This document shows positions 3,217 through 42,708 of a stretch of DNA of 42,708 nucleotides, piece by piece; the first letter of the stretch is position 1, and every line of letters begins with the position of its first letter. The position numbers and the translations under genes were made by a program. The DNA lies in assembly GCA_943354165.1 (NCBI GenBank), contig CALRBH010000006.1, positions 1 through 42,708 on the forward strand. Direction: 5' to 3'. The stretch is from Candidatus Uhrbacteria bacterium RIFOXYB12_FULL_58_10. Its GTDB lineage: Bacteria; Patescibacteriota; Patescibacteriia; UBA9934; GWF2-40-263. The notes below the pieces were generated by a model that ran no database searches, was not told where the DNA came from, and worked only from the letters and a program-made list of their open reading frames with translations.

Positions 3217-4143
3217 TTATTCCTTATGCGCGAGGTACTTCTCCGCCTCCAGCGCCGCCATGCACCCAGTCCCAGACGCCGTTATCGCCTGGCGATACTT
3301 ATAGTCAGCCACATCGCCTCCTGCATAAACGCCCGGCACGCTCGTCGACGCCGTACCAGGCGTGACGATCACGTATCCCTTGGCATCCAAATCGATCTGG
3401 CCCTTGAGCATCTCCGTATTCGGCTTGTGGCCGATGGCGAGAAAGAGGCCGTTGGCGTCCATCGTCGAAACTTCGCCTGTCTTAAGATTCCGTGCTTTGA
3501 CGCCAGTCATCTTCGTACCGTCACCAAGCACTTCCTCAACGGCCGTGTTCCAGACGAACGAAATCTTCGGGTTCGCTTTCGCGCGTTCCTGCATGATGAC
3601 GGACGCGCGCAACGCTTCGGAGCGAACGAGTACTTTTACCTGTGTCGCGAACTTGGTGAGGAACAACGCCTCTTCCATGGCAGAGTCTCCCCCACCAATA
3701 ACGAGGATCGATTTCTCGCGGAAGAAAAACCCGTCGCACGTGGCACAAGACGATACCCCGCGACCCTTGTACTTATCCTCGCCAGGAACTCCAAGCCAGA
3801 GAGCAGAAGCACCGGTCGCAATGATTACTGCATTCGCTGTGTATTCGTTCGTCGTTGTCTTCACAAAAAACGGACTCACAGAAAAATCCACCTTGATGAC
3901 GGAATCCGTCACAAAGCGCGTACCGAATCGCTCGGCCTGCTTGCGGATCATCTGCATCATGTCAGGACCCAAAATCCCATCCGGATACCCCGGCCAATTT
4001 TCGACATCCGTTGTCAGCATGAGCTGACCGCCCGGCTGCGGGCCTTCGATAAGCAGCGGCTTCAGCATCGCGCGCGACGCATAAATCCCGGCCGTGTATC
4101 CGGCCGGTCCGCCACCGATGATGATCAAATTTTCATGTTGCAT
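3217..4143 (-). CDS. trxB: Thioredoxin-disulfide reductase
   Basis: Contains GGGPAGY (FAD), CATCDG (redox-active CxxC) and GGGDSAMEEA (NADPH). The start is trimmed to ATG 4143 (MQHENLIIIGGGPAG). The track ORF's extra 32 codons read through the repeat array. Confidence 0.95.
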   Translation of the reverse strand: MQHENLIIIGGGPAGYTAGIYASRAMLKPLLIEGPQPGGQLMLTTDVENWPGYPDGILGPDMMQMIRKQAERFGTRFVTDSVIKVDFSVSPFFVKTTTNEYTANAVIIATGASALWLGVPGEDKYKGRGVSSCATCDGFFFREKSILVIGGGDSAMEEALFLTKFATQVKVLVRSEALRASVIMQERAKANPKISFVWNTAVEEVLGDGTKMTGVKARNLKTGEVSTMDANGLFLAIGHKPNTEMLKGQIDLDAKGYVIVTPGTASTSVPGVYAGGDVADYKYRQAITASGTGCMAALEAEKYLAHKE

Positions 4144-4152
4144 GAGAGCTGT

Positions 4153-4237
4153 GGGTTGTAAGGGTTGTGAGGGTAGTGAGGGTTGTAAGGGGCTTCTTTC
4201 CCTTACCACCCTTATCGCCCTTACCACCCTTACCGCC
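4153..4237. repeat. Inverted nonamer array, GGGNNGTAA/TTACNNCCC family, copy 1
   Basis: The G-rich arm at 4153-4192 is GGGTTGTAA GGGTTGTGA GGGTAGTGA GGGTTGTAA GGGG. The loop is CTTCTTT. The C-rich arm at 4200-4237 is CCCTTACCA CCCTTATCG CCCTTACCA CCCTTACCG CC. The arms are imperfectly complementary, with GGG/CCC in register. Confidence 0.9.
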
Positions 4238-4238
4238 A

Positions 4239-4556
4239 TTAAACGTGTTTTTCAACACGTGCTTTCAAAGCGTCCTTGGACATCGATCCGGAAAACTGGT
4301 CTACAACCTGCCCACCCTTAAAGACGATGAACGTCGGGATGGAAAGAATGTTGTACCGGCTGGCGATGGCGATGTTGTCGTCCACGTTGAGCTTCCCAAC
4401 TACAAGGGAACCGAGTTCCTTTGCGAGCTCTTCCACAACTGGACTCATCACCTTGCATGGTCCGCACCATGGAGCCCAAAAATCTACCAATACAGGTTTT
4501 TCGGACTGAAGAACGGAAGTGTCAAAGTTCTCTGCCGTCAGGACAAGCTCGGACAT
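4239..4556 (-). CDS. trxA: Thioredoxin
   Basis: WCGPC active site and a 105 aa product from ATG 4556 (MSELVLTAENF...). The upstream part of the track ORF (..LTTLTTLTTLTT..) is repeat read-through. Confidence 0.95.
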   Translation of the reverse strand: MSELVLTAENFDTSVLQSEKPVLVDFWAPWCGPCKVMSPVVEELAKELGSLVVGKLNVDDNIAIASRYNILSIPTFIVFKGGQVVDQFSGSMSKDALKARVEKHV

Positions 4557-4563
4557 ATGTGAA

Positions 4564-4651
4564 GGGGTTGTAAGGGTGGTAAGGGTTGTAAGGGTGGTAA
4601 GGGGGTTTATTCCCTCACCGTCCATTACCGCCCTTACAACCCTTACCGCCC
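4564..4651. repeat. Inverted nonamer array, GGGNNGTAA/TTACNNCCC family, copy 2
   Basis: The G-rich arm at 4564-4605 is GGGGTTGTAA GGGTGGTAA GGGTTGTAA GGGTGGTAA GGGGG. The loop is TTTAT. The C-rich arm at 4611-4651 is TCCCTCACCGTCCATTACCGCCCTTACAACCCTTACCGCCC. Confidence 0.9.
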
Positions 4652-4656
4652 TAAAA

Positions 4657-6684
4657 TTAACGTTTCGAAATTCCTTCCAACACAAGCAACTGGGCCTTGT
4701 TTTCCTCTGAGTAGGCTTCGAGTATATCACCGATTTCGGCCTTTACACGACTCTTGTAGCGCATCCCGCACTCCTGGCCGCCCTTCGCCTCGCGGAGCTC
4801 GGATTTGCCGAGCTGGAGCCCGATGATTTCGCCTTCGCCAATATACACCTCTCCGCGCTTGATGCGGAGCTTGGCCTTGGGGAGAAGTTTTCCGCCCATG
4901 ACGCGTCCGCCCACGATCCAACCCTCGTCCGTCTTCTTGAAGTTGGCGAGCACTTCCAGCTTGCCGAGTTCTGTAATGATAATTTCGGACGGGAGAAGCT
5001 TCTGGAGTTCCTTAATCGCGTCTTCGAACAAACGGTAGATGACCTGATAGGTGCGGACATCGAGTTCCTTATCGCGAATGAAGCCCTGAGCGGTGGAAAC
5101 GATCTGAACATTGAAGCCCATCACCATGGCCTTGGACGCATCGGCGTTCTGCACGTCCGTGTCCGTGATGTTGCCGAGTCCCTTTGCGATCACCTTCACG
5201 CCAACCGACTCATGCTTGATGGTGTCGAGCATGCCGAGGATCGCTTCGAGCGAACCGAGCACGTCCGCGCGCACGATGATGTTGAGCATCTTTTTCCCGG
5301 CCGCATCGTCCGAAATATTTTGGACATGCTTGATGGAGGCGACGTCTTCCGACGCCTTATTGTTGTCCGCTTTTACCTTGATAAGCCCAGCAACGCTCGC
5401 AGGAACCTCCATGACATCTCCGACCGATGGAGCCGCCTTCCAACCCAAAATCTCTACCGGAGTAGATGGAGGAGCCTCCTTCAGTTCCCCACCCTTCCAA
5501 TCCTTCATGGCACGGACGCGACCGAAGTGCATTCCGCGCACACCAAGCACATCGCCAACACGCAAGGTGCCGGACTGTACGAGGAGCGTGGCGATAGGGC
5601 CCGAGCCTGGATCAACATGGGATTCAATGACCGTTCCGATCGCGCGGCGCGAAGGGTTCGCAACAATGCGCTCTGCCTCAAGTTCATTTACGAAAAGCAA
5701 CTGGTCGAGCAGTTTATCAAGTCCAATATTCGACTTGGCAGAAAGTGGAACCATGATGGTCTTCCCTCCCCAATCGTCTGGAATCAAATTCAATTCCGCG
5801 AGCTGGGACTTTACCTTCTCAATGTTCGCGTCGGCCTTATCGATCTTGTTGATGGCAACCACGAACGGCAGATGCGCGGACTGAATAATGTTGATAGCTT
5901 CCTTGGTCTGTGGCTGAACACCGTCATCCGCCGCAACCACAAGCACCGCGATGTCAGCCACCTTGGCTCCACGCGAACGCATGACCGTAAACGCTTCATG
6001 TCCTGGAGTATCGATAAAGGTCAGCGCCTTATCCTTATGATGGGCCTGGTACGCGCCAATGTGCTGCGTGATGCCGCCGGATTCCGATGCGGCCACGTTT
6101 GCCGAGCGGATCTTGTCGAGAAGCGTGGTTTTTCCGTGGTCCACGTGACCCATGATCACGATAACTGGCGCACGCGGCGTATTTGCCTCTGGGCCGACTT
6201 CTGCGAGCGCGGCCTTAAGCGTATCGACACCCTCGACGTCCGTTTCCCCGCCGACTTTTGCTTCCATGGGCACCGCCTTAAACCCAAGATCTTCCGCGAT
6301 GATGGAAGCGGTATCAAAGTCGATGCGTTCATTAATGGCGGCAAGAATCCCGCTGCGCATGAGTTCCTGCATCACCTTAGGGACGGGAAGGTTCAGGAGG
6401 GTGGCGAAATCACGCACCGTAATGACGGGCGGAACGGAAACCGGATGCGTCTCCGCAATGGCGCGACGCTGCTCGCGCGCTTCCGTGGCGGTCTTCTGGG
6501 CTTCCATCTTCTGGTTCACGCGCTCACGGCGCTTAAGCTCCCCCCAGGCTTCCATGATCTGGCTGGCCACGCGGTTGTCTACCTGAATAGCCTTGCGCCC
6601 AACCGCAAAACCGAGATCCGGAAGTTTCTCTCGGAGCTCATCTGGCGGAACGCGTAGACGACGGGCAAGTTCTGTAATGTTCAT
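4657..6684 (-). CDS. infB: Translation initiation factor IF-2
   Basis: 675 aa with an IF2 N-terminal segment, G-domain motifs [20 protein letters not shown] and NKID, and a C-terminal IF2 fold region. Confidence 0.96.
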
Positions 6685-6704: not shown

Positions 6705-6733
6705 AGGGTAATGGAAATGGGCTTTGTAGTCAA
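6705..6733 (-). promoter_or_regulatory. Candidate promoter of infB (TTGACT-N17-TACCCT)
   Basis: On the minus strand, TTGACT is at 6733..6728, the spacer is 17 nt and TACCCT is at 6710..6705, about 20 nt upstream of the infB ATG. It lies immediately downstream of the long palindrome. Confidence 0.4.
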
Positions 6734-6734
6734 T

Positions 6735-6842
6735 GAAACGACAAACGACAAAGAAATGCAGGAAACGACAAATGGTTAAAATTTTACCCGTTTGTCGTTT
6801 CCTGCATTTCTTTGTCGTTTGTCGTTTGTTTTTTGTCGTTTC
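6735..6842. repeat. Long palindromic element, AAACGACAA/TTTGTCGTT family, copy 1 (perfect 37-bp stem)
   Basis: 6736-6772 (AAACGACAAACGACAAAGAAATGCAGGAAACGACAAA) is the exact reverse complement of 6791-6827. The 18-nt loop is TGGTTAAAATTTTACCCG. Extra TTTGTCGTT units run to 6842. Confidence 0.93.
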
Positions 6843-6846
6843 TCCC

Positions 6847-11414: not shown

Positions 11415-12122
11415 ATGGAAGGATTTCTCTTGATCGACAAACCCGCCGGCCCGACTTCACACACGATTGTGAACATGGTTCGGCGTCTCACAAACGAAAA
11501 GCGCGTAGGCCACGCCGGCACGCTCGATCCGTTCGCAACCGGCCTGCTCATCGTCGGCGTCGGCCGTCCGGCCACACGTGAATTTTCGAAGTTGGTCGGA
11601 ATGGATAAGACGTATGTAGGAACGATGGTCCTCGGAGCCACGAGCGATACGCAGGACGGGACAGGCGTAATTACGAAAGGTTTGGGAAGTTTGGGAGGTT
11701 CGGAAGGTTGGGAAGGACGAAGGGGCGAGTTGGAGAAGGTCTTCGAACGGTTCGTCGGCCTGTTGAAACAGATTCCCCCGATGTACTCCGCCAAAAAGGT
11801 CGGCGGCAAGAAACTCTACGAGCTGGCCAGGCAAGGCAAAGAGATCGTCCGCCAGCCATCGGATGTGACCATCTATTCCCTTTCGATCGTAAACGTCGAT
11901 TTACCACGCATCACCTTCGAAGTGCGTTGTTCGAGCGGGACGTACATTCGAACCCTCGCCCATGATATCGGCCAGAACTTGGGTTGCGGAGCCTATCTAG
12001 AATCTCTTCGACGAACCTCAATTGGTCCATGGACCATCGATCAGGCCGTTAAACTAGATTCCCTCACCAAAGAGAACGTTCAGGGGTCGCTTTTAGCAAT
12101 CCAAAACGTAATTCCTGTTTAA
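11415..12122 (+). CDS. truB: tRNA pseudouridine(55) synthase
   Basis: Contains LLIDKPAGPTSH, the catalytic-Asp motif GHAGTLDP, and QIPPMYSAKK. The start is trimmed to ATG 11415 (MEGFLLIDKP). Confidence 0.93.
   Translation: MEGFLLIDKPAGPTSHTIVNMVRRLTNEKRVGHAGTLDPFATGLLIVGVGRPATREFSKLVGMDKTYVGTMVLGATSDTQDGTGVITKGLGSLGGSEGWEGRRGELEKVFERFVGLLKQIPPMYSAKKVGGKKLYELARQGKEIVRQPSDVTIYSLSIVNVDLPRITFEVRCSSGTYIRTLAHDIGQNLGCGAYLESLRRTSIGPWTIDQAVKLDSLTKENVQGSLLAIQNVIPV
11680..11724. repeat. In-frame nonamer array inside truB (GTTTGGGAA-type units)
   Basis: The units are GTTTGGGAA GTTTGGGAG GTTCGGAAG GTTGGGAAG GACGAAGGG, five units of period 9, and encode GLGSLGGSEGWEGRRG. Related GTTTGGGA/GTTTGAGG units occur in the spacers at 34301-34310 and 28781-28796. 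Confidence 0.85.
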
Positions 12123-12123
12123 T

Positions 12124-12176
12124 TTTTGTCGTTTTCTGTCTTTATTTGTCGTTTGACGTTTGTTGTTTGTCTTTTT
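12124..12176. repeat. Solo T-rich arm of the TTTGTCGTT family
   Basis: TTTTTGTCGTTTTCTGTCTTTATTTGTCGTTTGACGTTTGTTGTTTGTCTTTTT lies directly after the truB stop. No complementary A-rich arm is nearby. Confidence 0.8.
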
Positions 12177-17546: not shown

Positions 17547-17623
17547 TGGTGTGGGCGGAGGGATTTGAACCCCCTACCTCCTGGTTCGAAGCCAGGCGCT
17601 CTATCCAAATGAGCTACGCCCAC
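17547..17623 (-). tRNA. tRNA-Arg (anticodon UCG), CCA encoded
   Basis: The reverse complement GTGGGCGTAGCTCATTTGGATAGAGCGCCTGGCTTCGAACCAGGAGGTAGGGGGTTCAAATCCCTCCGCCCACACCA folds as a cloverleaf. The anticodon loop is CTTCGAA. Confidence 0.9.
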
Positions 17624-17632
17624 ATGCGGCCT

Positions 17633-17661
17633 ATCCTAGGCTCAATCTTGACTAGGGTCAA
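17633..17661 (-). promoter_or_regulatory. Candidate promoter of tRNA-Arg (TTGACC-N17-TAGGAT)
   Basis: On the minus strand, TTGACC is at 17661..17656 and TAGGAT at 17638..17633. The -10 box is 9 nt from the tRNA 5' end. It overlaps the divergent tRNA-Lys promoter. Confidence 0.5.
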
Positions 17662-17676
17662 TGGATTTGCGATACT
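17648..17676 (+). promoter_or_regulatory. Candidate promoter of tRNA-Lys (TTGACT-N17-GATACT)
   Basis: TTGACT is at 17648-17653, the spacer is 17 nt and GATACT is at 17671-17676, 11 nt upstream of the tRNA 5' end. Confidence 0.45.
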
Positions 17677-17687
17677 TCCGCCGTTAC

Positions 17688-17763
17688 GCATCGGTAGCTC
17701 AGCTGGTAGAGCAGGGGACTCTTAATCCCTTGGTCGTGGGTTCGAGCCCCGCCCGATGCACCA
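17688..17763 (+). tRNA. tRNA-Lys (anticodon CUU), CCA encoded
   Basis: GCATCGGTAGCTCAGCTGGTAGAGCAGGGGACTCTTAATCCCTTGGTCGTGGGTTCGAGCCCCGCCCGATGCACCA. The anticodon loop is CTCTTAA. Confidence 0.92.
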
Positions 17764-17822
17764 AAAAAATCTATCCTCCAGGATGGATTTTCTTGTTTCG
17801 GCGTGCTAAAGTCGGATCCACT

Positions 17823-18371
17823 ATGAGCTTGTTTTCTTTCATGAAATCGACGGTCCTCGACCTCAAAACGGTCGGAACACTCTCCCCCGCCTCTTCGTTT
17901 ACCGCGAAGCGCGTTGGCAACGCGTTGCCACCAAACGCAAAAACCGTCCTTGAACTTGGCGCCGGCGATGGAGCCATTACGCGCACCTTGCTCGAACGCC
18001 TTTCCCCGGACGCTCGCCTGCTCGCCGTAGAAATGAAACCGGAATTCGCCGCCGTGCTCGAAGCCATCGGCGACGCTCGCCTTTCCGTTTACACGGGCGA
18101 CGCGCTCCAGATAAAAAACGAAGCCGCATCGCGCGGCTTCGTTTCTTTTGACGTCATCGTGTCGAGCCTACCGTTCGCGCTCTTCCCAGAAGCAGCGCGC
18201 GATTCCCTGCTGAACGATATTTTTGATTTGCTTGCGCCAGGTGGCGTCATCATCGTCTGCCAGCACATGCCTACCCTGCTCCCGGCGCTCAAGGAGAAAT
18301 ATCACATCGATATCCAGGTGGAACCACTGAACATGCCGCCGTATTTCATCCTGCGCGGGACGAAGCGGTAA
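17823..18371 (+). CDS. Class I SAM-dependent methyltransferase (substrate unknown)
   Basis: Motif I VLELGAGDGAITRTLLE and the post-I acidic residue LLAVEM. The start is trimmed to ATG 17823. The track ORF's N-terminus reads through tRNA-Lys. Confidence 0.75.
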   Translation: MSLFSFMKSTVLDLKTVGTLSPASSFTAKRVGNALPPNAKTVLELGAGDGAITRTLLERLSPDARLLAVEMKPEFAAVLEAIGDARLSVYTGDALQIKNEAASRGFVSFDVIVSSLPFALFPEAARDSLLNDIFDLLAPGGVIIVCQHMPTLLPALKEKYHIDIQVEPLNMPPYFILRGTKR

Positions 18372-18380
18372 ACCGCTTCT

Positions 18381-18480
18381 GGGTCTGTAAGGGCGGTAAG
18401 GGTTGTAATGGACTGTGAGGGGCGAAGATTCGTTTTGTTTTCCCCTAACAGCCCTTACCACCATTACAACCCTTACCGCC
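18381..18480. repeat. Inverted nonamer array, GGGNNGTAA/TTACNNCCC family, copy 3
   Basis: The G-rich arm at 18381-18422 is GGGTCTGTAAGGGCGGTAAGGGTTGTAATGGACTGTGAGGGG. The loop is 19 nt. The C-rich arm at 18442-18480 is CCCCTAACAGCCCTTACCACCATTACAACCCTTACCGCC. It lies between the convergent methyltransferase and rnc genes. Confidence 0.9.
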
Positions 18481-18489
18481 TTTCGCCTC

Positions 18490-19179
18490 CTACCATCCCT
18501 TCGCCTTAATCGCCTCCTCCGCCGCAGCGACCTGCGCTTCGTGCTTAGAACTTCCGGACCCCTTCGCAACGAGTTCCTTGTTCAAGTAGATGCCCACTTC
18601 GAAAATTTTATTGTGATCGGGACCCACCTCGCTCATCACTTTGTAGTTTGGCGTGATGCCAAGCTTCTCCTGTGAAGCTTCCTGGAACCGACTCTTAGGA
18701 TCCACGTATAATCGGTGTTCAAGAATGCGCGGAAGCTCGGAGAGAACCACGCGCGTGATGAATTTCTTGGACTCGTCCCAGCCGCGATCGATGTAGATGG
18801 CGCCGATGATGGCCTCGATGGCGTTCGCGAGAATATAGCGGCGAGCCTTTGAGTCGGCATCCTTCGATTCTCCACGCGAAAGGTAAAGGAACGGCTCGAC
18901 ATCGAGCTTCTTACAGATATCCGACATCATGTCCGCGTTTACCAAGGCCGCGCGCCAGTTGGTGAGCTCACCCTCTGGATTTTCGTAATGCTTGTAGAGA
19001 TATTCCGTAACGACCAGTTCGAGCACGGCGTCGCCAAGAAACTCTAGGCGTTCATTGTGCCCGAGCGGAAAATCAGGATGTTCGTTGAGGTAACTGCGGT
19101 GAACCAGCGCTTGGCGCAGCGTATCCGTGTTTAGAAACGTTACACCAAGGGTTTGTTCAAACGGTTGTAAATTCGTCAT
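18490..19179 (-). CDS. rnc: Ribonuclease III
   Basis: Signature NERLEFLGDAVLE and a C-terminal dsRBD (GSGSSKHEAQVAAAEEAI). Confidence 0.95.
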   Translation of the reverse strand: MTNLQPFEQTLGVTFLNTDTLRQALVHRSYLNEHPDFPLGHNERLEFLGDAVLELVVTEYLYKHYENPEGELTNWRAALVNADMMSDICKKLDVEPFLYLSRGESKDADSKARRYILANAIEAIIGAIYIDRGWDESKKFITRVVLSELPRILEHRLYVDPKSRFQEASQEKLGITPNYKVMSEVGPDHNKIFEVGIYLNKELVAKGSGSSKHEAQVAAAEEAIKAKGW

Positions 19180-19676: not shown

Positions 19677-19702
19677 AAAGGGCAAGGGCTGTAAGGGATT
19701 TC
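19677..19702. repeat. Short G-rich remnant of the GGGNNGTAA family
   Basis: AAAGGGCAAGGGCTGTAAGGGATT lies immediately upstream of the nusB start. Confidence 0.6.
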
Positions 19703-25828: not shown

Positions 25829-27652
25829 ATGCGACCCCTCACAAAGCAGCTCACCATTGCCGTGCTCGCCGTAATTATCGCCGGGCTCGCCCTCTCTTCC
25901 TATTCCCTCTCCGGCAAAGCGCCGGAAGAGGTGACGATCTCCGCCCTCATCGAGCATATTGAGAAAGAGAATCTCAAGGAACTTTCCGTGGAAGGCAGCA
26001 CCATTACCGCGACCCTTAAAGACGATACCGAGGTGAAGACCCAGAAAGAATCGGAAGGATCGATTGTGGAGCTTCTCAAGAACTACGGCGTTGACGAGGA
26101 CAAGATCAAAGCCGCCAACATCACCATCTCGGAACGTTCGGCACGCTCCTATATTTTGAGCTACATCCTCCCCTCGCTCATCCCGTTGATTCTCGTAGGC
26201 ATCCTGCTCTTCTTCATGGTGCGCCAGATGCAGGGCGCCAACTCCAAGGCCATGACGTTCGGCAGCTCCGGCGCGCGCGAGGCGGACCCTAAGGGAAAGA
26301 ACCGCGTGAAGTTTTCGGACGTAGCCGGCGCCAAGGAAGCCAAGGAAGAACTCCACGAAATCGTGGAGTTCCTGAAGAACCCTAAAAAGTTCGCCGACCT
26401 CGGCGCAAAGCTCCCTAAAGGTGTGCTCCTCATGGGCCGTCCAGGTACAGGAAAGACACTGCTCGCCCGCGCGGTCGCTGGGGAAGCAGAAGTTCCCTTC
26501 TTCCACATCTCCGGATCCGAATTCGTGGAAATGTTTGTCGGTGTAGGTGCAAGCCGCGTACGCGATCTTTTTGCAAAAGCAAAAAAGAGCGCGCCATGCA
26601 TTATTTTTATCGATGAAATCGATGCGGTCGGCCGCCAGCGCGGAGCCGGACTTGGCGGAAGCCACGATGAGCGCGAACAGACCTTGAACCAGATCCTCGT
26701 GGAAATGGACGGGTTTGAAGCGAACCTTGGTGTCATTGTCGTCGCCGCCACCAACCGCCCAGACGTACTCGATCCAGCCCTCCTGCGCCCAGGCCGCTTC
26801 GACCGCCGCGTCATCCTCGACCTTCCGGACATCACGGAGCGTTTGGAAATTCTCAAGGTGCACGCGATCGGAAAACCAATGGCAAAGGACGTCGCACTCC
26901 AGCGCGTTGCTGAACGCACCGTTGGATTCGCCGGCGCTGACCTCATGAACCTGCTCAACGAAGCCGCCATCCGCACCGCGCGCCAGAACCGCGCAGAGGT
27001 GACCCAGGAAGACATCCTTACCTCTATCGAAAAAGTCATGCTTGGACCTGAACGCAAGAGCAAGGTCATGTCGGAGGGAGACAAGAAGCTCGTGGCCTAC
27101 CACGAAGCCGGTCACGCGATCGTGGCCCACTTCTCCAAGCACGCGGATCCCGTCCATAAAGTTTCGATCATCTCCCGCGGCTCGGCCGGCGGGTACACCA
27201 TGAACGTTCCTGGCGAGGACCAGCGCTTCCCGCGCCGCGCCCAGTTCATTGATGACATGGCGGTCTGTCTCGGTGGATACGTGGCCGAACAGGAAACGTT
27301 TGGCGATCTCACCACAGGAGCCTCAAGCGATCTTAAAAAGGCTACGCGTATCGCCCGCGACATCGTCACTCGCTACGGTATGAGCGAACTCGGCCCACAG
27401 GTATTCGGCGAATCGGAAGAGATGGTCTTCCTCGGCCGCGACCTGCATGAGACACGCAACTATTCCGAGAACACGGCCCAGCGCATCGACGAAGCCGTTT
27501 CGAAGCTCGTTCATGGCGCCATGGAGACCGCTCGTGGTATTATTACGAGCAAGAAAGTTGAACTCGATAAGATTGCAAACGCGCTCCTCGTAAAGGAGAC
27601 ACTTGAAAAGGAAGCGTTCGAAGAACTTCTTGGCGGAGCGAAACAGAGGTAG
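25829..27652 (+). CDS. ftsH: ATP-dependent zinc metalloprotease FtsH
   Basis: N-terminal TM helices, AAA+ Walker A GRPGTGKT, Walker [12 protein letters not shown], and zinc site HEAGHAIV. Confidence 0.97.
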
Positions 27653-27723
27653 TAGTAAGTAGATAGTAGTTAGTAGATTTTACTTCACCACTACTAACTA
27701 CTTACTACTACCTACTAACTAAG
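27649..27723. repeat. Locus-private inverted array (TAGTAGT/ACTACTA units)
   Basis: Arm 1 is GTAGTAGTAAGTAGATAGTAGTTAGTAG, the loop is 13 nt and arm 2 is ACTACTAACTACTTACTACTACCTACTAACTAAG. The array begins at the ftsH stop codon. Confidence 0.85.
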
Positions 27724-33482: not shown

Positions 33483-34229
33483 ATGATTGAACTTCTCTTT
33501 GGGCTGTCGCCGTTTATTGCCATCGGTCTCCTGGCCTCATTGCGCCAAGTGAACCAATATCAGCGCGGAGTGCGGTTTACGATGGGTAAATTCTCCGGCC
33601 TCGCCGAACCAGGCTGGCGCCTTGTCATCCCCGTCTTTCAGTCGATGACGAAAGTCGACTTGCGTCTGAAGGCCGTGGACGTGCCGTCGCAGGATGCGAT
33701 CACCAAGGACAACATCAGTGCGAAGATCAACGCCGTGATCTACTACAAGGTGACGGACGTAAAAAAGGCCGTACTCGAAATCCAGTCGCTCGACTACGCC
33801 GTGCTCCAGCTTGCCATGACCACCATGCGCAACATCGCCGGCGAGGTCACGCTCGATGAGCTCCTTTCCCAGCGCATGATCATCTCCGCAAAGATCGAGG
33901 AGCTTGTTGATGAAGCCACCAAAGACTGGGGCGTGGAAGTCACCACCGTCGAGCTCAAGGACATCAACCTCCCTGCCGACATGGTCCGCACCATCGGAAA
34001 GCAGGCGGAAGCAGAACGCGAGCGCCGTGCCGTCATCATTAACTCGGAAGGTGAAGTGGCTGCAGCAGCCAACCTCGCTAAGGCGGCCGAAATGCTCTCC
34101 GCAAGCCCAGGTGCCCTGCATCTGCGCACGCTGAATTCGATCAACGATATTTCAAGCGACGCATCGAACACAGTAGTATTCGCCGTACCGCTCGAGATCC
34201 TAAAGGCGTTCGAGGGGATGAAGAAATAA
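33483..34229 (+). CDS. SPFH/band-7 (stomatin-like) membrane protein
   Basis: 248 aa with an N-terminal TM helix followed by VNQYQRGVRFTMGKF...ITKDNISAKINAVIYYKV...ERERRAVI, typical of the SPFH domain. Confidence 0.9.
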   Translation: MIELLFGLSPFIAIGLLASLRQVNQYQRGVRFTMGKFSGLAEPGWRLVIPVFQSMTKVDLRLKAVDVPSQDAITKDNISAKINAVIYYKVTDVKKAVLEIQSLDYAVLQLAMTTMRNIAGEVTLDELLSQRMIISAKIEELVDEATKDWGVEVTTVELKDINLPADMVRTIGKQAEAERERRAVIINSEGEVAAAANLAKAAEMLSASPGALHLRTLNSINDISSDASNTVVFAVPLEILKAFEGMKK

Positions 34230-34345
34230 ACGACAAACGATAAATCCCAAACGACAAAGAAAGAGGGAAACGACAAACGGGTAAAACTTTTGTCGTTTTT
34301 CGTTTGGGATTTCTTTGTCGTTTGTCGTTTCCTCTTTGTCGTTTT
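34228..34345. repeat. AAACGACAA/TTTGTCGTT family element, copy 3 (imperfect foldback)
   Basis: The A-arm at 34228-34280 is AAACGACAAACGATAAATCCCAAACGACAAAGAAAGAGGGAAACGACAAACGG. The loop is GTAAAAC. The T-arm at 34288-34345 contains CGTTTGGGA opposite TCCCAAACG. Confidence 0.88.
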
Positions 34346-34365
34346 CGCGTTATACTGAAACAACT

Positions 34366-35456: not shown

Positions 35457-37347
35457 GGCCCCCGTCCCACAACCCCGCCTGCTTAAATTCCCCCGCAAAA
35501 CCGTAGTCATCACCGCCACGGCTTTTGTCGTCCTGATCGCTCTTGGAGCAGGCAGTGCCTATGTCTGGGCGGATCAATACCAAGGCCATATCGCCCCGAA
35601 TATTGCCATCGGTCCGGTAGATGTGAGCGGACTTGAACCGGCGCTCGCCCGCATCAAGGTCCAAAATGCGGTAGACCAGCTGCTCGGAACCGGCATTCCC
35701 GTGATCTTCAATGGATCCCAAACCACGCTCCCTCTTTCCGCCTCCGGTACGGACGCAGTGGAACTCGTCTCGTTTGAAGTCGATGCCGCGATCGCCAAAG
35801 CCCTTGCCTATCGACGTTCCTCGGAAAAGGCCTTGGACACCCTTTATTTGATTCAACATCTCGTCACTCGATCCAACGAGGTCATCGCCGTCCCGGTCAC
35901 CCTTCACGAAGAGGCGATTAAAACTTCCATACGTTCCCTTTATCCGGACGCAGAGATGGCTTGGAACAATGCCTCCTTTTCGTTCTCGCGCATCGGAGCT
36001 GACTGGCAAGGCCGCGTAGAATCCGCACGTCCTGGACGCGTGTTCAGCTATCCATCCTTCTTCCGTGACCTCACCGCAAAGCTTTCGGTCCTCACCACAG
36101 AAGGCTTCGTCACTCTAGAAATTGTCTCTGCAACCCCGAGCATCACAGACGCGGATGCACAGGCCGTGCTCGCCAATGCGGAAACCGCCATGCGCCGAGC
36201 CCCCTACTCCATCATGGAACGTCCAGAAGGCACCGGACGCACCTGGCCCATCCCCGCAAAGGATTTGGGCAGCCTCCTGCGCCCTGACACCTCCGGCGAC
36301 GGTCTGCGCATTGGGATCGATGCGGAAACATGGAAGCTCTATCTTGAGGAACATGTTTCCCCAGAGGTTGAAGAGCTGGCTGTGAATGCTCGTTTTCAAA
36401 TCGAAGACGGAAAAGTAAAGGAATTCGCCGGAAGCGCACAAGGCGTCTCGCTTGATGTCGATGGTATGCGCGCCGCCCTTGAACAAGCGATCGCTGAAGA
36501 CACCACTTCCATCATTCTTGCGACATTTGTGACCGAACCGGAAATCACCACGGAAGAGGTGAATGATCTTGGGGTCACGACGTTGCTCGGGACCGGAACG
36601 TCCTCGTATAAAGGCTCACCGAAAAACCGGATCCAAAATATCAAAAACGGCGTCCAACTCCTGAATGGACTCCTGATTGCTCCAGGAGAGACGTTCTCCC
36701 TTCTGAATGCGCTTCAACCGTTTGTCGCGGAGAACGGCTATTTGCCGGAACTTGTCATTAAGGGCGATAAGATCACTCCTGAAATCGGTGGTGGACTCTG
36801 TCAGATCGGCACGACCACCTTCCGCGCAGCCATGAAATCCGGACTGCCTATCGCCGAACGCCGCAACCACAGCCTTGTCGTCTCCTACTATAACGATCCG
36901 GCCAATGGAAAGCCGGGAACTGACGCCACCATCTACGATCCAGCCCCAGACCTCAAGTTCACGAACGATACGGGACATTTCGTCCTGTTCGAGGCGCTGA
37001 ATAACACAAAAACCCAAGCGCTTTCCTTCAGTTTTTGGGGAACCTCCGATGGCCGCAAGGGTTCCTACACACCACCGGTCGTCATCCGCTGGCTTCCCGT
37101 GGGCGAGACCAAGCGCATCGAAAGTGCCGATCTCAAACCCGGCGAGGAAACCTGTCAGGGAGAACACGTCGGAGCAGATACCACCTTCACCTACACCGTC
37201 CTCAAGGCCGATGGTTCAACCGTGGACACCGTCTTCGATTCCCACTATCGCCCGCTCCCAAAAATCTGTCTCGTGGGCGTAACGCCCATCCCCGGAGAGA
37301 CGCCTGCGGTTCCCGAAACCATCCTCGAACCCACCGTAACCCCCTAA
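35446..37347 (+). CDS. VanW-domain protein with an N-terminal membrane anchor
   Basis: 633 aa with a TM helix near the N-terminus and a VanW core (IAPGETFSLLNAL...GGGLCQIGTTTFRAAMKSGLPIAERRNHSLVVSYY). Confidence 0.88.
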   Translation: MEVEAPVPQPRLLKFPRKTVVITATAFVVLIALGAGSAYVWADQYQGHIAPNIAIGPVDVSGLEPALARIKVQNAVDQLLGTGIPVIFNGSQTTLPLSASGTDAVELVSFEVDAAIAKALAYRRSSEKALDTLYLIQHLVTRSNEVIAVPVTLHEEAIKTSIRSLYPDAEMAWNNASFSFSRIGADWQGRVESARPGRVFSYPSFFRDLTAKLSVLTTEGFVTLEIVSATPSITDADAQAVLANAETAMRRAPYSIMERPEGTGRTWPIPAKDLGSLLRPDTSGDGLRIGIDAETWKLYLEEHVSPEVEELAVNARFQIEDGKVKEFAGSAQGVSLDVDGMRAALEQAIAEDTTSIILATFVTEPEITTEEVNDLGVTTLLGTGTSSYKGSPKNRIQNIKNGVQLLNGLLIAPGETFSLLNALQPFVAENGYLPELVIKGDKITPEIGGGLCQIGTTTFRAAMKSGLPIAERRNHSLVVSYYNDPANGKPGTDATIYDPAPDLKFTNDTGHFVLFEALNNTKTQALSFSFWGTSDGRKGSYTPPVVIRWLPVGETKRIESADLKPGEETCQGEHVGADTTFTYTVLKADGSTVDTVFDSHYRPLPKICLVGVTPIPGETPAVPETILEPTVTP

Positions 37348-37380
37348 CCGCCCTTACAGCCCTTACCACCCTTACAGCCC
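37341..37380. repeat. Solo C-rich arm of the TTACNNCCC nonamer family
   Basis: CCCCTAACCG CCCTTACAG CCCTTACCA CCCTTACAG CCC. It starts in the last VanW codons and spans the stop. No G-rich partner lies within about 100 nt. Confidence 0.85.
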
Positions 37381-37404
37381 TACGTTGTTATCCACACCGA
37401 GAGC

Positions 37405-40748: not shown

Positions 40749-42708
40749 ATGCACCTCGTTAAACTTGAAATCCAAGGTTTTAAGACGTTTGCCAAGAAAA
40801 CGACCCTCACGTTCCTCGCTCCTAAGGAAGGCGTGAGCCCGCTTACCGCCATCGTGGGTCCGAACGGCTCTGGAAAGTCGAATGCCGCCGACGCCATCCG
40901 TTGGGTACTCGGTGAACAATCCCTCAAACTCCTGCGCGGAAAGAAGTCCGAGGATATTATTTTTTCTGGTTCCGAAGGCCGCGGACGCGCCGGCTTCGCC
41001 GAGGTTTCGATTTCCTTCAACAACGAGGATCGGAGCATGCCGATCGACTACACCGAAGTGACCATCACCCGCCGCCTTTATCGCGATGGCGAGTCCGAGT
41101 ATCTTTTGAACGACGCCACCGCGCGTCTCGCCGACATCCAGCTTCTGCTCGCCCAAGCAAACGTCGGCCAGCGTTCTTACTCCGTGGTCGGCCAAGGCAT
41201 GGTGGATCACATCCTCGTCTCCTCCCCCGAGGAGCGCAAAGCGTTTTTCGACGACGCCACCGGCGTGCGCCCGCTCCAGATGAAGCGTCATGAAGCGATG
41301 TTGAAATTGAAACGCACGTACGAAAACCTTACTGAGGTCGAAATGCTGCTTACGGAAATCGAACCTCGCCTTCGATCGTTGAAGCGCCAGGTGAGTCGTC
41401 TTGAGCAGCGCGATGAAGTAGAAAAATCCCTCCGCTCCCTTGAGGCCGCCTACTACGGAACCATGTGGTGGCAGCTTGAGGACCAGCACAAGACCGCGAA
41501 GGAACGCCATGCGAAATTGGAAGCCGATGTTGAAGCCGCAAAGGGCGGAATGGGTGGACTCGAAGCGCGCGTCGAAGCCATCGCCGCCGAAGATTCAGGA
41601 AAGAAGTCCGAAGCCGACGCCGGGCTTATCGAACTCCAGAAGCGCTACCAGGAACTGCAAAAAGAACGCAGCAAGGCCCGCGAGGCGGAATACCAGTCGA
41701 GCCGCCAGCTTGAGCTCATGAAAGTCCGCGCACAGTCGACCTGGGCTCCGCTTCCGCTTACAAAAATCATCGAAGAAATCGACACTATCGTCGCCGAGCA
41801 GCGCCAGCTGCTCGAACAAGTACGGTCCCTTACAGACCTTACCGCCCTTACAACCCTTACCGCCCAAATCGACGCGACTCTGTCACGTTCGACGAAACTC
41901 GTCGGCCGCCTCCAGCGCCCTGCCCCGGAAGACGTAAAACCCGACCCCGTCCTCGTTGCAAAAACCGAGGAGCACGCCAGCGATCGCGCGCGCATCGAAG
42001 GCGAGATCGCCACGCTCGAAAAGGAAATGGAAACCAAGGCGACGAGCGAAAAGCAGGTCCGCACCGAGCTCATCGACCTCCAGCGCGAACTCCGTCAGAA
42101 GCAGGCGCAGCTACATTTACTTGAAAGCCAGCGCAACAGCGTCTCCATTGAACTCGCGCGCTTCGAGGAGCGCCGTGGGAACCTTGTGCGCGAAATGGAC
42201 GAGCAACTCAAGGGTGAAATCGGCGACATCCGCACCGTGCGCCCATCGACGTTTGCCGACACCGCCGCGGCCTATCCGGAAATCCAGCGCCTCCGCTACC
42301 GCCTGGAACTCATCGGCGGCATCGACCCGGAGATCGTCAAAGAGTTCGAGGAAACGAATGCACGCTTTACCTTCCTCGACGCGCAGGTCAAAGATCTACG
42401 CGGAGCGATTTCGTCGACCGAAAAGCTCATCGACGAGCTCGACGAAGACATTCACATCCAGTCCGAACAGTCGTTCAAGGCCATCAACGTGGAGTTCCAA
42501 AAGTTTTTCAAACTGCTCTTCGGTGGCGGATCCTGTTCCCTGCTCAAGCTCACGAAGGAAGACCTCGAACCGGAACAACCGCCAGGCGAAGGGGTCACAC
42601 CTGAACGCGTCAGCACCGACACCGGAGCCGCCGAACGCAAGGAACATGAGGAAGACACCTCGGTAGAAGCCATCAAGATCCGCATCAAGGAACGCGAGGA
42701 CCGCGTGG
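40749..42708 (+). CDS. smc: SMC-family chromosome segregation ATPase (partial, runs off the window end); unusually short arms with no recognisable hinge
   Basis: Absent from the ORF track because it has no stop in the window. Manual translation from ATG 40749 is open to 42708. The N-head reads MHLVKLEIQGFKTFA...GPNGSGKSNAADAIRWVLGEQS...ITRRLYRDGESEYLLN. The C-head entry (ELIGGIDPEIVKEFEE...FKLLFGGG) is already reached by about aa 520-590. Confidence 0.85.
   Translation, partial: MHLVKLEIQGFKTFAKKTTLTFLAPKEGVSPLTAIVGPNGSGKSNAADAIRWVLGEQSLKLLRGKKSEDIIFSGSEGRGRAGFAEVSISFNNEDRSMPIDYTEVTITRRLYRDGESEYLLNDATARLADIQLLLAQANVGQRSYSVVGQGMVDHILVSSPEERKAFFDDATGVRPLQMKRHEAMLKLKRTYENLTEVEMLLTEIEPRLRSLKRQVSRLEQRDEVEKSLRSLEAAYYGTMWWQLEDQHKTAKERHAKLEADVEAAKGGMGGLEARVEAIAAEDSGKKSEADAGLIELQKRYQELQKERSKAREAEYQSSRQLELMKVRAQSTWAPLPLTKIIEEIDTIVAEQRQLLEQVRSLTDLTALTTLTAQIDATLSRSTKLVGRLQRPAPEDVKPDPVLVAKTEEHASDRARIEGEIATLEKEMETKATSEKQVRTELIDLQRELRQKQAQLHLLESQRNSVSIELARFEERRGNLVREMDEQLKGEIGDIRTVRPSTFADTAAAYPEIQRLRYRLELIGGIDPEIVKEFEETNARFTFLDAQVKDLRGAISSTEKLIDELDEDIHIQSEQSFKAINVEFQKFFKLLFGGGSCSLLKLTKEDLEPEQPPGEGVTPERVSTDTGAAERKEHEEDTSVEAIKIRIKEREDRV
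41827..41866. repeat. In-frame copy of the TTACNNCCC nonamer array inside smc
   Basis: CCCTTACAG ACCTTACCG CCCTTACAA CCCTTACCG CCC uses the same units as the intergenic arrays at 4200-4237, 4611-4651, 18442-18480 and 37341-37380. It encodes SLTDLTALTTLTA. Confidence 0.88.

Follow-up and report, generated by a model that had tools for sequence, protein, structure and literature searches.

Heptamer arrays known as short tandemly repeated repetitive sequences (STRRs) are characteristic of heterocystous cyanobacteria, in which several families occur per genome, sometimes inverted and hairpin-forming. In Proteobacteria, the repetitive extragenic palindromic sequences (REPs), the bacterial interspersed mosaic elements (BIMEs) and the REPINs are multi-copy, extragenic, transcribed imperfect palindromes, a REPIN being two inverted repeats copied as a unit. 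REPs are known as barriers to 3'-5' exonucleases, and work by Higgins and Newbury reportedly demonstrated REP-mediated mRNA stabilisation. Patescibacteria have very small and compact genomes with few recognisable regulators. The elements analysed here are inverted pairs of tandem nonamer arrays that occupy both spacers of an infB-trxA-trxB operon on contig CALRBH010000006.1. The whole stretch of DNA that was analysed (positions 1 to 42,708, or 42.7 kb) is referred to as the window. It forms the end of a metagenome scaffold of 298 kb, 49 kb of which was examined in total.

The closest published analogue is the group of G-rich simple sequence repeats (SSRs) of Xanthomonas (GGGAATC) and Nostoc (GGGGAYT), which have G3 units, favour arrays of about four units and show a strong intergenic bias (Rehm et al. 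2015, PMC4692102). Their positional rule places the G-rich sequence on the coding strand up to 50 bp past a stop codon (overlap included) and on the non-coding strand in the 50 bp that precede a start codon (PMC4692102). Xanthomonas genomes contain 70-75 convergent inverted pairs each, which are potential stem-loops and mostly transcribed; among related genomes the length and sequence of the SSRs turn over and their type (single or pair) is kept (PMC4692102). The TAACTGA direct repeats of Beggiatoaceae, Cyanobacteria and Bacteroidetes, often found a few nucleotides from a start codon, include one inverted case in 170, and a post-transcriptional role has been proposed for them (MacGregor 2015, PMC4679880).

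Judging from TrxB, the host is a member of the Candidate Phyla Radiation (CPR) without a close sequenced relative, because the nearest TrxB proteins in a search among 5.8 billion proteins are ~70% identical and are annotated as Candidatus Uhrbacteria or Patescibacteria. Its two operon spacers very probably each hold a copy of a ~90-nt polar imperfect palindrome with GGGNNGTAA / TTACNNCCC arms, which belongs to one of several dispersed, stop-proximal and non-coding repeat families and was inserted or expanded in once-tight gene junctions. The operon and its two elements are arranged as follows.

3217-4143, minus strand: trxB, short form of 308 aa; Pfam Pyr_redox_2 begins at residue 37 of the long open reading frame (ORF)
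4153-4238: nonamer hairpin element 1, in the trxA-trxB spacer; on the plus strand, G-rich arm 4153-4192, loop 4193-4199, C-rich arm 4200-4238
4239-4556, minus strand: trxA, short form of 105 aa; Pfam Thioredoxin begins at residue 62 of the long ORF
4562-4652: nonamer hairpin element 2, in the infB-trxA spacer; on the plus strand, G-rich arm 4562-4605, loop 4606-4611, C-rich arm 4612-4652
4657-6684, minus strand: infB (IF-2), the upstream cistron, stop codon at 4657-4659; Pfam IF2_N, GTP_EFTU and IF-2; public gene call

The trxA-trxB spacer (4144-4238) measures 95 nt and the infB-trxA spacer (4557-4656) 100 nt. The Pfam domains of trxA and trxB start at the methionines at 4556 and 4143, and Pfam upheld both the gene identities and the spacer bounds given by an earlier, sequence-only reading of this DNA. 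Each spacer holds 4-5 GGGNNGTAA units, a loop of 6-7 nt and 4-5 TTACNNCCC units, an arrangement which that reading had described and which is visible both in the sequence and in the output of Tandem Repeats Finder (period-9 arrays at 4153-4191, 4200-4234, 4565-4603 and 4612-4652, with 3.9-4.4 copies each). On the mRNA (minus) strand, element 2 reads stop codon, 4 nt, (GGGNNGUAA)n, loop, (UUACNNCCC)n, 8 nt, AUG. In-register complementarity of the arms is 29/39 (74%) and about 27/36 (75%) in the two elements with GGG and CCC in phase, as had also been noted. The gaps are about 4-5 nt from stop codon to array and about 8-10 nt from array to ATG. The claim that the spacers are filled end to end is therefore correct in that the arrays occupy them, but 4 nt after the stop codon and 8-9 nt before the ATG are left over.

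Within the nonamer only two positions are variable. GGG is conserved at 27-32 of 32 units per G position and GTAA equally strongly. The exact GGGNNGTAA unit occurs 21 times in the window against 2.7 expected, always within arrays, in six loci and never isolated. The 12-mer GGGNNGTAAGGG, allowing at most one mismatch, occurs 31 times against 1.9 expected, and none of 100 shuffles reached 31. In two arrays (4565-4603 and 4200-4241) an 18-nt super-period was also seen, resulting from a strict alternation of unit variants, e.g. TT / TG (100% match at period 18). Both arrays are matched at 100% identity by L002, an independent Logan assembly, though it may derive from the same read set.

Folding of the minus-strand RNA, a check proposed by the sequence-only reading, gave significant hairpins of -43.6 kcal/mol for element 1 (z -4.4) and -54.2 kcal/mol for element 2 (z -6.0). 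Neither arm is followed by a T-run on either strand, and the scan gives no terminator-like site at the arrays, so the earlier statement that these are not canonical terminators is correct. The scan found neither promoter-like nor terminator-like sites in the two spacers. For this reason infB, trxA and trxB should be co-transcribed with the elements inside the operon mRNA, and we infer that transcription passes through them.

The nonamer family is not confined to the two spacers; such confinement was what the sequence-only reading had said would count against it. Six loci are present in 42.7 kb, five of them intergenic, along with other families of the same design. The four further nonamer loci are listed below.

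18381-18481: nonamer hairpin element 3, flanked by convergent genes, 9 nt past the stop codon of a methyltransferase gene and 8 nt past that of rnc
19677-19697, minus strand: remnant with 2-3 C-rich units on the mRNA, immediately upstream of the nusB ATG (19676)
37342-37381: half element, a single C-rich arm on the plus strand; its first unit, CCCTAACCG, holds the TAA stop codon of a VanW-domain gene (37345-37347)
41827-41865, plus strand: half element of four units, in frame within smc (SMC_N), encoding SLTDLTALTTLTA

The three full nonamer copies are 84-87% identical in the same orientation (84% between elements 1 and 2) against 73-78% when one is reversed; these whole-element values are inflated by the periodic arms and come from n=3. 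A T-rich loop and a CCCTTACCGCC terminus are common to all three. Because they align in the same orientation and have this loop and terminus in common, the three seem to be copies of a single polar element of ~90 nt.

A second family is built from heptamers (AAACGAC/GTCGTTT) and includes three full hairpins and two partial copies. Its arms have ~60 nt in common at four loci, including non-periodic landmarks. A third type of inverted pair, TAGTAGN/ACTACTA, occurs once, as do the single arrays of GCCTAAC, TTCGTAGG and CCGACTA. The main loci of these families are:

6736-6841: heptamer hairpin, 5 nt past the stop codon of a T2SSF gene and 51 nt before the infB ATG (z -12)
12125-12175: heptamer half element, 2 nt past the truB stop codon
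24397-24500: heptamer hairpin, the third full copy, upstream of an S1-domain gene
27650-27721: inverted TAGTAGN/ACTACTA array in which the stop codon of ftsH is the first unit; GGAGG and the next ATG come after the array
34228-34344: heptamer hairpin, beginning within the TAA stop codon of a Band_7 gene and extending to the next gene

Together the repeat arrays make up ~2.3% of the window and about a fifth of its intergenic DNA. The 6.8 kb of scaffold examined beyond the window start contains no repeat arrays. Logan contigs L002, L003 and L005 end inside heptamer hairpins (at 6772, 24486 and 34234) and pass through nonamer hairpins. Such breaks are expected of multi-copy DNA, which suggests that the heptamer family has a higher genomic copy number than the nonamer family. 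In practical terms, arrays of this kind break short-read assemblies and mislead gene callers, as at the start of trxA.

Anchoring to stop codons is the strongest regularity of the arrays. Eleven arrays start between -6 and +9 nt from the nearest stop codon, and in the four roomy spacers they lie at the stop end (5 versus 51, 2 versus 220, 7 versus 52 and -5 versus 220 nt). The stop codon is inside the first unit, or directly against it, in four cases: ftsH, the Band_7 gene, the VanW-domain gene and clpP. A second regularity is chirality. In every inverted pair seen (in the window, in Peregrinibacteria, Peribacteria and Altimarinota loci, in the relative L117 and in Gemmatimonadales) the order is purine-rich arm, loop, pyrimidine-rich arm, and this design is common to nonamer, heptamer and other unit families. 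Equivalently, the sense strand is purine- or G-rich past the stop codon and C-rich before the start codon. Within the window this strand rule holds in both spacers, in element 3 and in 8-9 of the 11 stop-adjacent arrays of all unit types.

Strand asymmetry was also visible at the level of the window. The three nonamer elements have one common polarity, and GC skew is negative over the whole window. Plus-strand RNA folds better in 5 of 6 inverted pairs whatever the gene orientation (4150-4654, 6733-6846, 18378-18484 and 34226-34350). The asymmetry may reflect a replication-linked polarity, with the caveat that the sample is too small to interpret.

Compared with the SSRs of Rehm et al., the window arrays have the same G3 tandem units (3.9-4.4 copies per arm), positional rule and convergent inverted pairs. 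They differ in that the unit is 9 nt and not 7, GTAA is conserved too, and the host belongs to the CPR. The window also has polar ~90-nt whole-element copies and coexisting families that are not G-rich, and its G-quadruplexes (G4) are putative, predicted from the sequence motif. The likeness to STRRs suggested by the sequence-only reading is apt as an architectural analogy, since both are dispersed multi-copy arrays of short units in intergenic or intra-operon spacers with several families together. Membership fails, however, on period (9, not 7) and taxon: the main unit in the window is a nonamer in a CPR host, and the AAACGAC family has the heptamer period but another sequence and taxon. The proposed REP/BIME type is likewise useful as a functional and architectural analogy (hairpin-forming and intra-operon, between cistrons or at 3' ends, transcription in the window being presumed), but not as a class. 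A REP is a single 20-40-nt GC-rich palindrome, while the window elements span 86-101 nt, have tandem 9-nt units in their arms and show no BIME-type alternation. No REP-associated tyrosine transposase (RAYT) was seen in the 49 kb, as Y1_Tnp had no match among the scanned window ORFs or the called genes listed. The TAACTGA repeats are similar in being short-unit intergenic arrays in spacers without a canonical ribosome-binding site, but inverted pairs are frequent in the window, where arrays are anchored most tightly to stop codons, not starts.

A literature search of the papers available found no earlier description of such elements in Peregrinibacteria or Patescibacteria. What is new here, within a known repeat phenomenon, is the period of 9, the CPR host, the polar whole-element copies and the coexisting non-G families. 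The stop-anchored tandem-repeat hairpins extend the STRR, G-rich SSR and REPIN phenomenon to Patescibacteria.

Several established classes were rejected as identities for the arrays. An intrinsic terminator is excluded by the lack of a T-tract and of a scan match at the arrays; GC-hairpin terminators with a T-tract are found elsewhere on the scaffold, and the array hairpins are a class distinct from these ordinary terminators of the host. Examples of the latter, with a GC-rich hairpin followed by T6, lie after two genes in L001 (17960-17995 and 18830-18865). A search against Rfam 15 gave no gathering-score match at the arrays, three tRNAs being the sole matches in the window. CRISPR arrays consist of 24-48-nt repeats with unique spacers, not of 9-nt head-to-tail units without spacers, and there was no Rfam CRISPR match. 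TIGR arrays (TIGR-Tas) do occur in Patescibacteria and have two alternating 8-12-nt repeats with ~9-nt variable spacers (a ~36-nt unit) beside a Nop-domain Tas gene. The window arrays have one 9-nt unit with two variable positions and no 36-nt period, and no Nop-domain gene is present in the window. DNA uptake sequences (DUS/USS) are spread over a genome as thousands of single copies, within genes as well and in some cases as inverted pairs behind genes; they were rejected because 21 of 21 exact units belong to the six array loci and none stands alone. Miniature inverted-repeat transposable elements, which have terminal inverted repeats between target-site duplications, are not among the rejected classes: the arms act as long terminal inverted repeats, and inspection showed no flanking direct duplication at elements 1-3 (three copies with an undefined target site).

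The gene order infB-trxA-trxB is kept in seven relatives, with the following junction lengths, those of the P0015 locus being taken from gene calls alone.

Window: infB-trxA 100 nt, trxA-trxB 95 nt
L116: infB-trxA 3 nt, trxA-trxB -4 nt
L117: infB-trxA 3 nt, trxA-trxB 94 nt
L118: infB-trxA 69 nt, trxA-trxB 74 nt
L119: infB-trxA 3 nt, trxA-trxB 70 nt
L200: infB-trxA 17 nt, trxA-trxB 4 nt
P0015 locus: infB-trxA 26 nt, trxA-trxB 53 nt
L201: infB-trxA 2 nt, trxA-trxB -4 nt

Tight junctions are common and, on this comparison, the elements are additions specific to the lineage. When a junction of 3 nt gains an element, the resulting spacer is necessarily filled "exactly", and the 2-4-nt or overlapping junctions of several relatives, a syntenic comparison that the sequence-only reading had called for, account for the fill it had remarked on. 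The trxA-trxB spacer is 53-95 nt long in 5 of the 8 syntenic genomes, and in three of them (window, L117 and L119) it forms a strong hairpin. In L117 it consists of (AAGGTGGAN)n, a loop and (CCACC..)n up to the ATG (dG -42, z -8.8); in L119 it is a hairpin with repeated arms; L118 has a period-9 AAGG/CCTT pair that is degenerate and does not fold significantly. The long spacers differ in sequence, and the period-9 or repeat-armed hairpins of L117 and L119 are non-homologous. The recurrence of unrelated hairpins at this junction hints at either a hotspot or hairpin retention. The operon therefore offers a natural series, from overlapping junctions to hairpin-filled ones of 95-100 nt, for questions of mRNA stability and coupling. 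A metagenome scan with a TrxB profile returned 80 loci (51-62% identical) and added little, as trxA was directly upstream in only 3. Elsewhere in L117 (4679-4775), a GGTTGTAGGGAGTA / CCTACAA inverted array lies between the rny and HU genes and abuts the HU-gene ATG; the GGTTGTAGGGAGTA unit is similar to GGGTTGTAA of the window.

A unit conserved across phyla was considered and rejected. Arrays of GGGNNGTAA can be found in many phyla, yet in viral contigs permuted units are equally common or commoner (8 for the real unit versus 9, 15 and 16 for permuted G-rich nonamers). Taxonomic spread is therefore no evidence of conservation, and only multi-locus families within single genomes are meaningful.

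As to what the elements do, the favoured but tentative reading is that each is a stop-proximal intercistronic mRNA hairpin affecting decay, processing or translational coupling, every such consequence being one that we infer by analogy. Each element would fold in the operon mRNA as an imperfect hairpin of ~35-40 bp, beginning 4-5 nt past the upstream stop codon and ending 8-10 nt before an AUG that has no Shine-Dalgarno (SD) sequence. Such a hairpin could shield the 3' side of the upstream cistron from 3'-5' exonucleases or serve as a cleavage site for a double-strand ribonuclease (RNase), and either would produce segment-specific mRNA levels, as described for REPs. The sequence-only reading had put forward these roles, including different infB, trxA and trxB mRNA levels, and they are plausible. 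The hairpin might also hinder or delay termination at the stop codon beside it, as reported for Escherichia coli REPs, which stall ribosomes near stop codons (PMC12306157). Finally, initiation at the downstream AUG may depend on ribosomes finishing the upstream gene, with the terminating ribosome melting the base of the stem and thereby freeing 17-19 nt before the AUG. Taken as a whole, identity and function together, this explanation has about an even chance of being right. The sequence-only reading had pointed out that rnc is in the window as a possible source of RNase III. The gene is indeed present (18490-19179, minus strand) but has no specific link to the repeat elements, and as a near-universal gene its presence is uninformative about them.

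Several findings weigh against a hairpin function in the operon mRNA. In both spacers the antisense (plus) RNA is more stable than the mRNA strand by 7-13 kcal/mol, contrary to what one would expect if mRNA hairpin stability were under selection, and the arms are just ~75% complementary. Single-arm nonamer and heptamer copies exist (37342, 41827 and 12125), one of them in frame inside smc, so a hairpin is not obligatory for the family to persist. L116, L200 and L201 have no trxA-trxB spacer element at all, which makes the element dispensable for the operon. As regards the spread of the elements, no mobilising gene was seen in the examined 49 kb of the 298-kb scaffold.

Because of the weaker mRNA fold, the imperfect and single arms, the smc copy and the element-free relatives, a selfish or neutral element is almost as likely as an mRNA hairpin with a function. 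The arrays would then be repeat DNA without a role in the cell, spread by a copying mechanism that is left unspecified, by gene conversion, or by slippage with template switching. They would persist where they do least harm, just past stop codons, and the rules of position and orientation would reflect purifying selection acting as a filter. The dispersed copies and half elements fit such a history, as do the several relatives without elements, the turnover of unit sequence at the same junction, and the poor complementarity with the mRNA strand as the less stable one. Also in line with it, viral contigs contain permuted G-rich nonamer arrays as often as arrays of the real unit. Active slippage is indicated by truB, where independent period-9 repeats are found in five genomes. 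These repeats are in frame in a hypervariable loop of TruB (alignment columns ~97-127) in five of five genomes, the unit being different in each:

Window, 11677-11716: truB in-frame repeat
L116, 7078-7107: truB in-frame repeat
L117, 6829-6855: truB in-frame repeat
L118, 5802-5836: truB in-frame repeat
L119, 4687-4721: truB in-frame repeat

The differences between units suggest that the truB repeats arose independently, by recurrent three-codon slippage at one tolerated site, and that the process is active in the lineage. A purely neutral origin is harder to reconcile with arrays occupying ~2.3% of the window when patescibacterial genomes are small and compact. It would also have to explain the invariant purine-arm-first chirality, and the spacer of 53-95 nt in 5 of 8 genomes, with strong unrelated hairpins in three, points to retention or a hotspot.

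Two further explanations, both of them improbable, concern the unit itself. One is that the (G3N6)≥4 arms act as G4 or i-motif elements in DNA or RNA, with the G4 on the sense strand past the stop codon and on the antisense strand before the start. Four-stranded structures have been proposed for the GGGAATC and GGGGAYT repeats, and both the 4-5 units per arm and the identical positional rule agree with that precedent (PMC4692102). Within the unit, conservation is highest at GGG (27-32/32 per G position), and all four G4-motif matches in the window fall in nonamer arrays (4153-4192, 4200-4229, 4564-4605 and 37330-37380). Yet four matches are no enrichment over shuffled sequence (mean 2.3, maximum 8), and GTAA, which a G4 does not need, is conserved as strongly as GGG. 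In an inverted pair a duplex or hairpin competes with the G4. Moreover, the AAACGAC and TAGTAGN families and the spacer hairpins of L117-L119 have the same architecture without G-tracts. That the positional rule is common to G-rich and non-G-rich units argues against a purely G-quadruplex explanation of it.

The other, which we consider equally doubtful, is that the arrays are binding sites for ribosomes or proteins: SD-like UAAGGG units would hold terminating ribosomes and CCCUUAC would mimic the anti-SD, or the units would be sites of the S1, CsrA or Csp type. No SD sequence was found before trxA, trxB or infB, and C-rich tracts precede these genes. A precedent exists in the TAACTGA repeats, which lie beside start codons in spacers without a canonical ribosome-binding site (PMC4679880). 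The purine arms of the window and its relatives carry AAGG at a 9-nt period (UAAGGG, AAGGUGG, GGUAAGGAA and UAAGGAGGG), and GTAA is conserved beyond the needs of pairing. The heptamer and TAGTAGN families, however, have the same architecture and no SD-like core, and arrays of the GGGAGGTAA type are also found in Flavobacteriales, a group in which SD-led initiation is little used. Within the stem the SD-like units are for the most part base-paired, and no candidate binding protein was identified. As a general observation, an SD-like motif precedes just ~35-40% of called starts in the window, among them those at 6684 and in the region of 34229, plus L116 and L117. C-rich or CCUCC-like tracts, e.g. 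CACCTCCCC ATG, precede many starts, including those of infB (6684), the HU gene and the UDP-glucose dehydrogenase gene.

A more elaborate and quite unlikely form of the coupling idea is that stop-anchored period-9 cassettes replace overlap-type coupling in Patescibacteria, with an SD-like 5' arm (UAAGGR), an anti-SD-mimicking 3' arm and shunt-like re-initiation. The base of the stem would place the upstream stop codon next to the SD-less AUG, and terminating ribosomes would be retained and handed across the hairpin. If true, the cassette would be a tunable device evolving by unit slippage.

Translation of the arrays as N-terminal extensions, giving a TrxB of 340 aa (ATG at 4239) and a TrxA of 128-163 aa, can be dismissed as a most improbable reading even though neither spacer has a stop codon in the downstream gene's frame, the trxA stop codon and the ATG at 4237-4239 share bases as TAATG, a public gene caller places the trxA start within the array (128 aa), and a GGGNNGTAA-type unit is translated in smc and apparently signal-peptide-like in L059. 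The spacer arrays are non-coding. The Pfam domains begin at the short-form methionines, and homologues of 305-324 aa (TrxB) and 105-106 aa (TrxA) start from the aligned methionine. An exact 308-aa TrxB product is on record and a 340-aa one is not, and relatives have no homologues of the predicted peptides (MAVRVVRAIRVVRERSPLQPSLPSQPLQPTAL...). The open frames are unsurprising, as the C-rich arm is stop-free in all frames and two of the three frames of the G-rich arm are open, so that both spacers are open by chance in ~4/9 of cases.

The public trxA call (L001 9519-9905, window 4557-4625) uses an ATG made by a variant unit in the array, and has neither a recorded Pfam hit nor homologue support. 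This start is probably a misannotation caused by the open array. In the Altimarinota locus L059 (1015-1050), the nonamer unit of the smc array appears to encode a signal-peptide-like MKKFLSTLTTLITLTTVTT.

Two tRNA genes in the window are divergently oriented (17550-17623 on the minus strand and 17688-17760 on the plus strand). The ORF listed for the 236-aa methyltransferase (17661-18371) overlaps the plus-strand tRNA, and its true start must therefore be further downstream.

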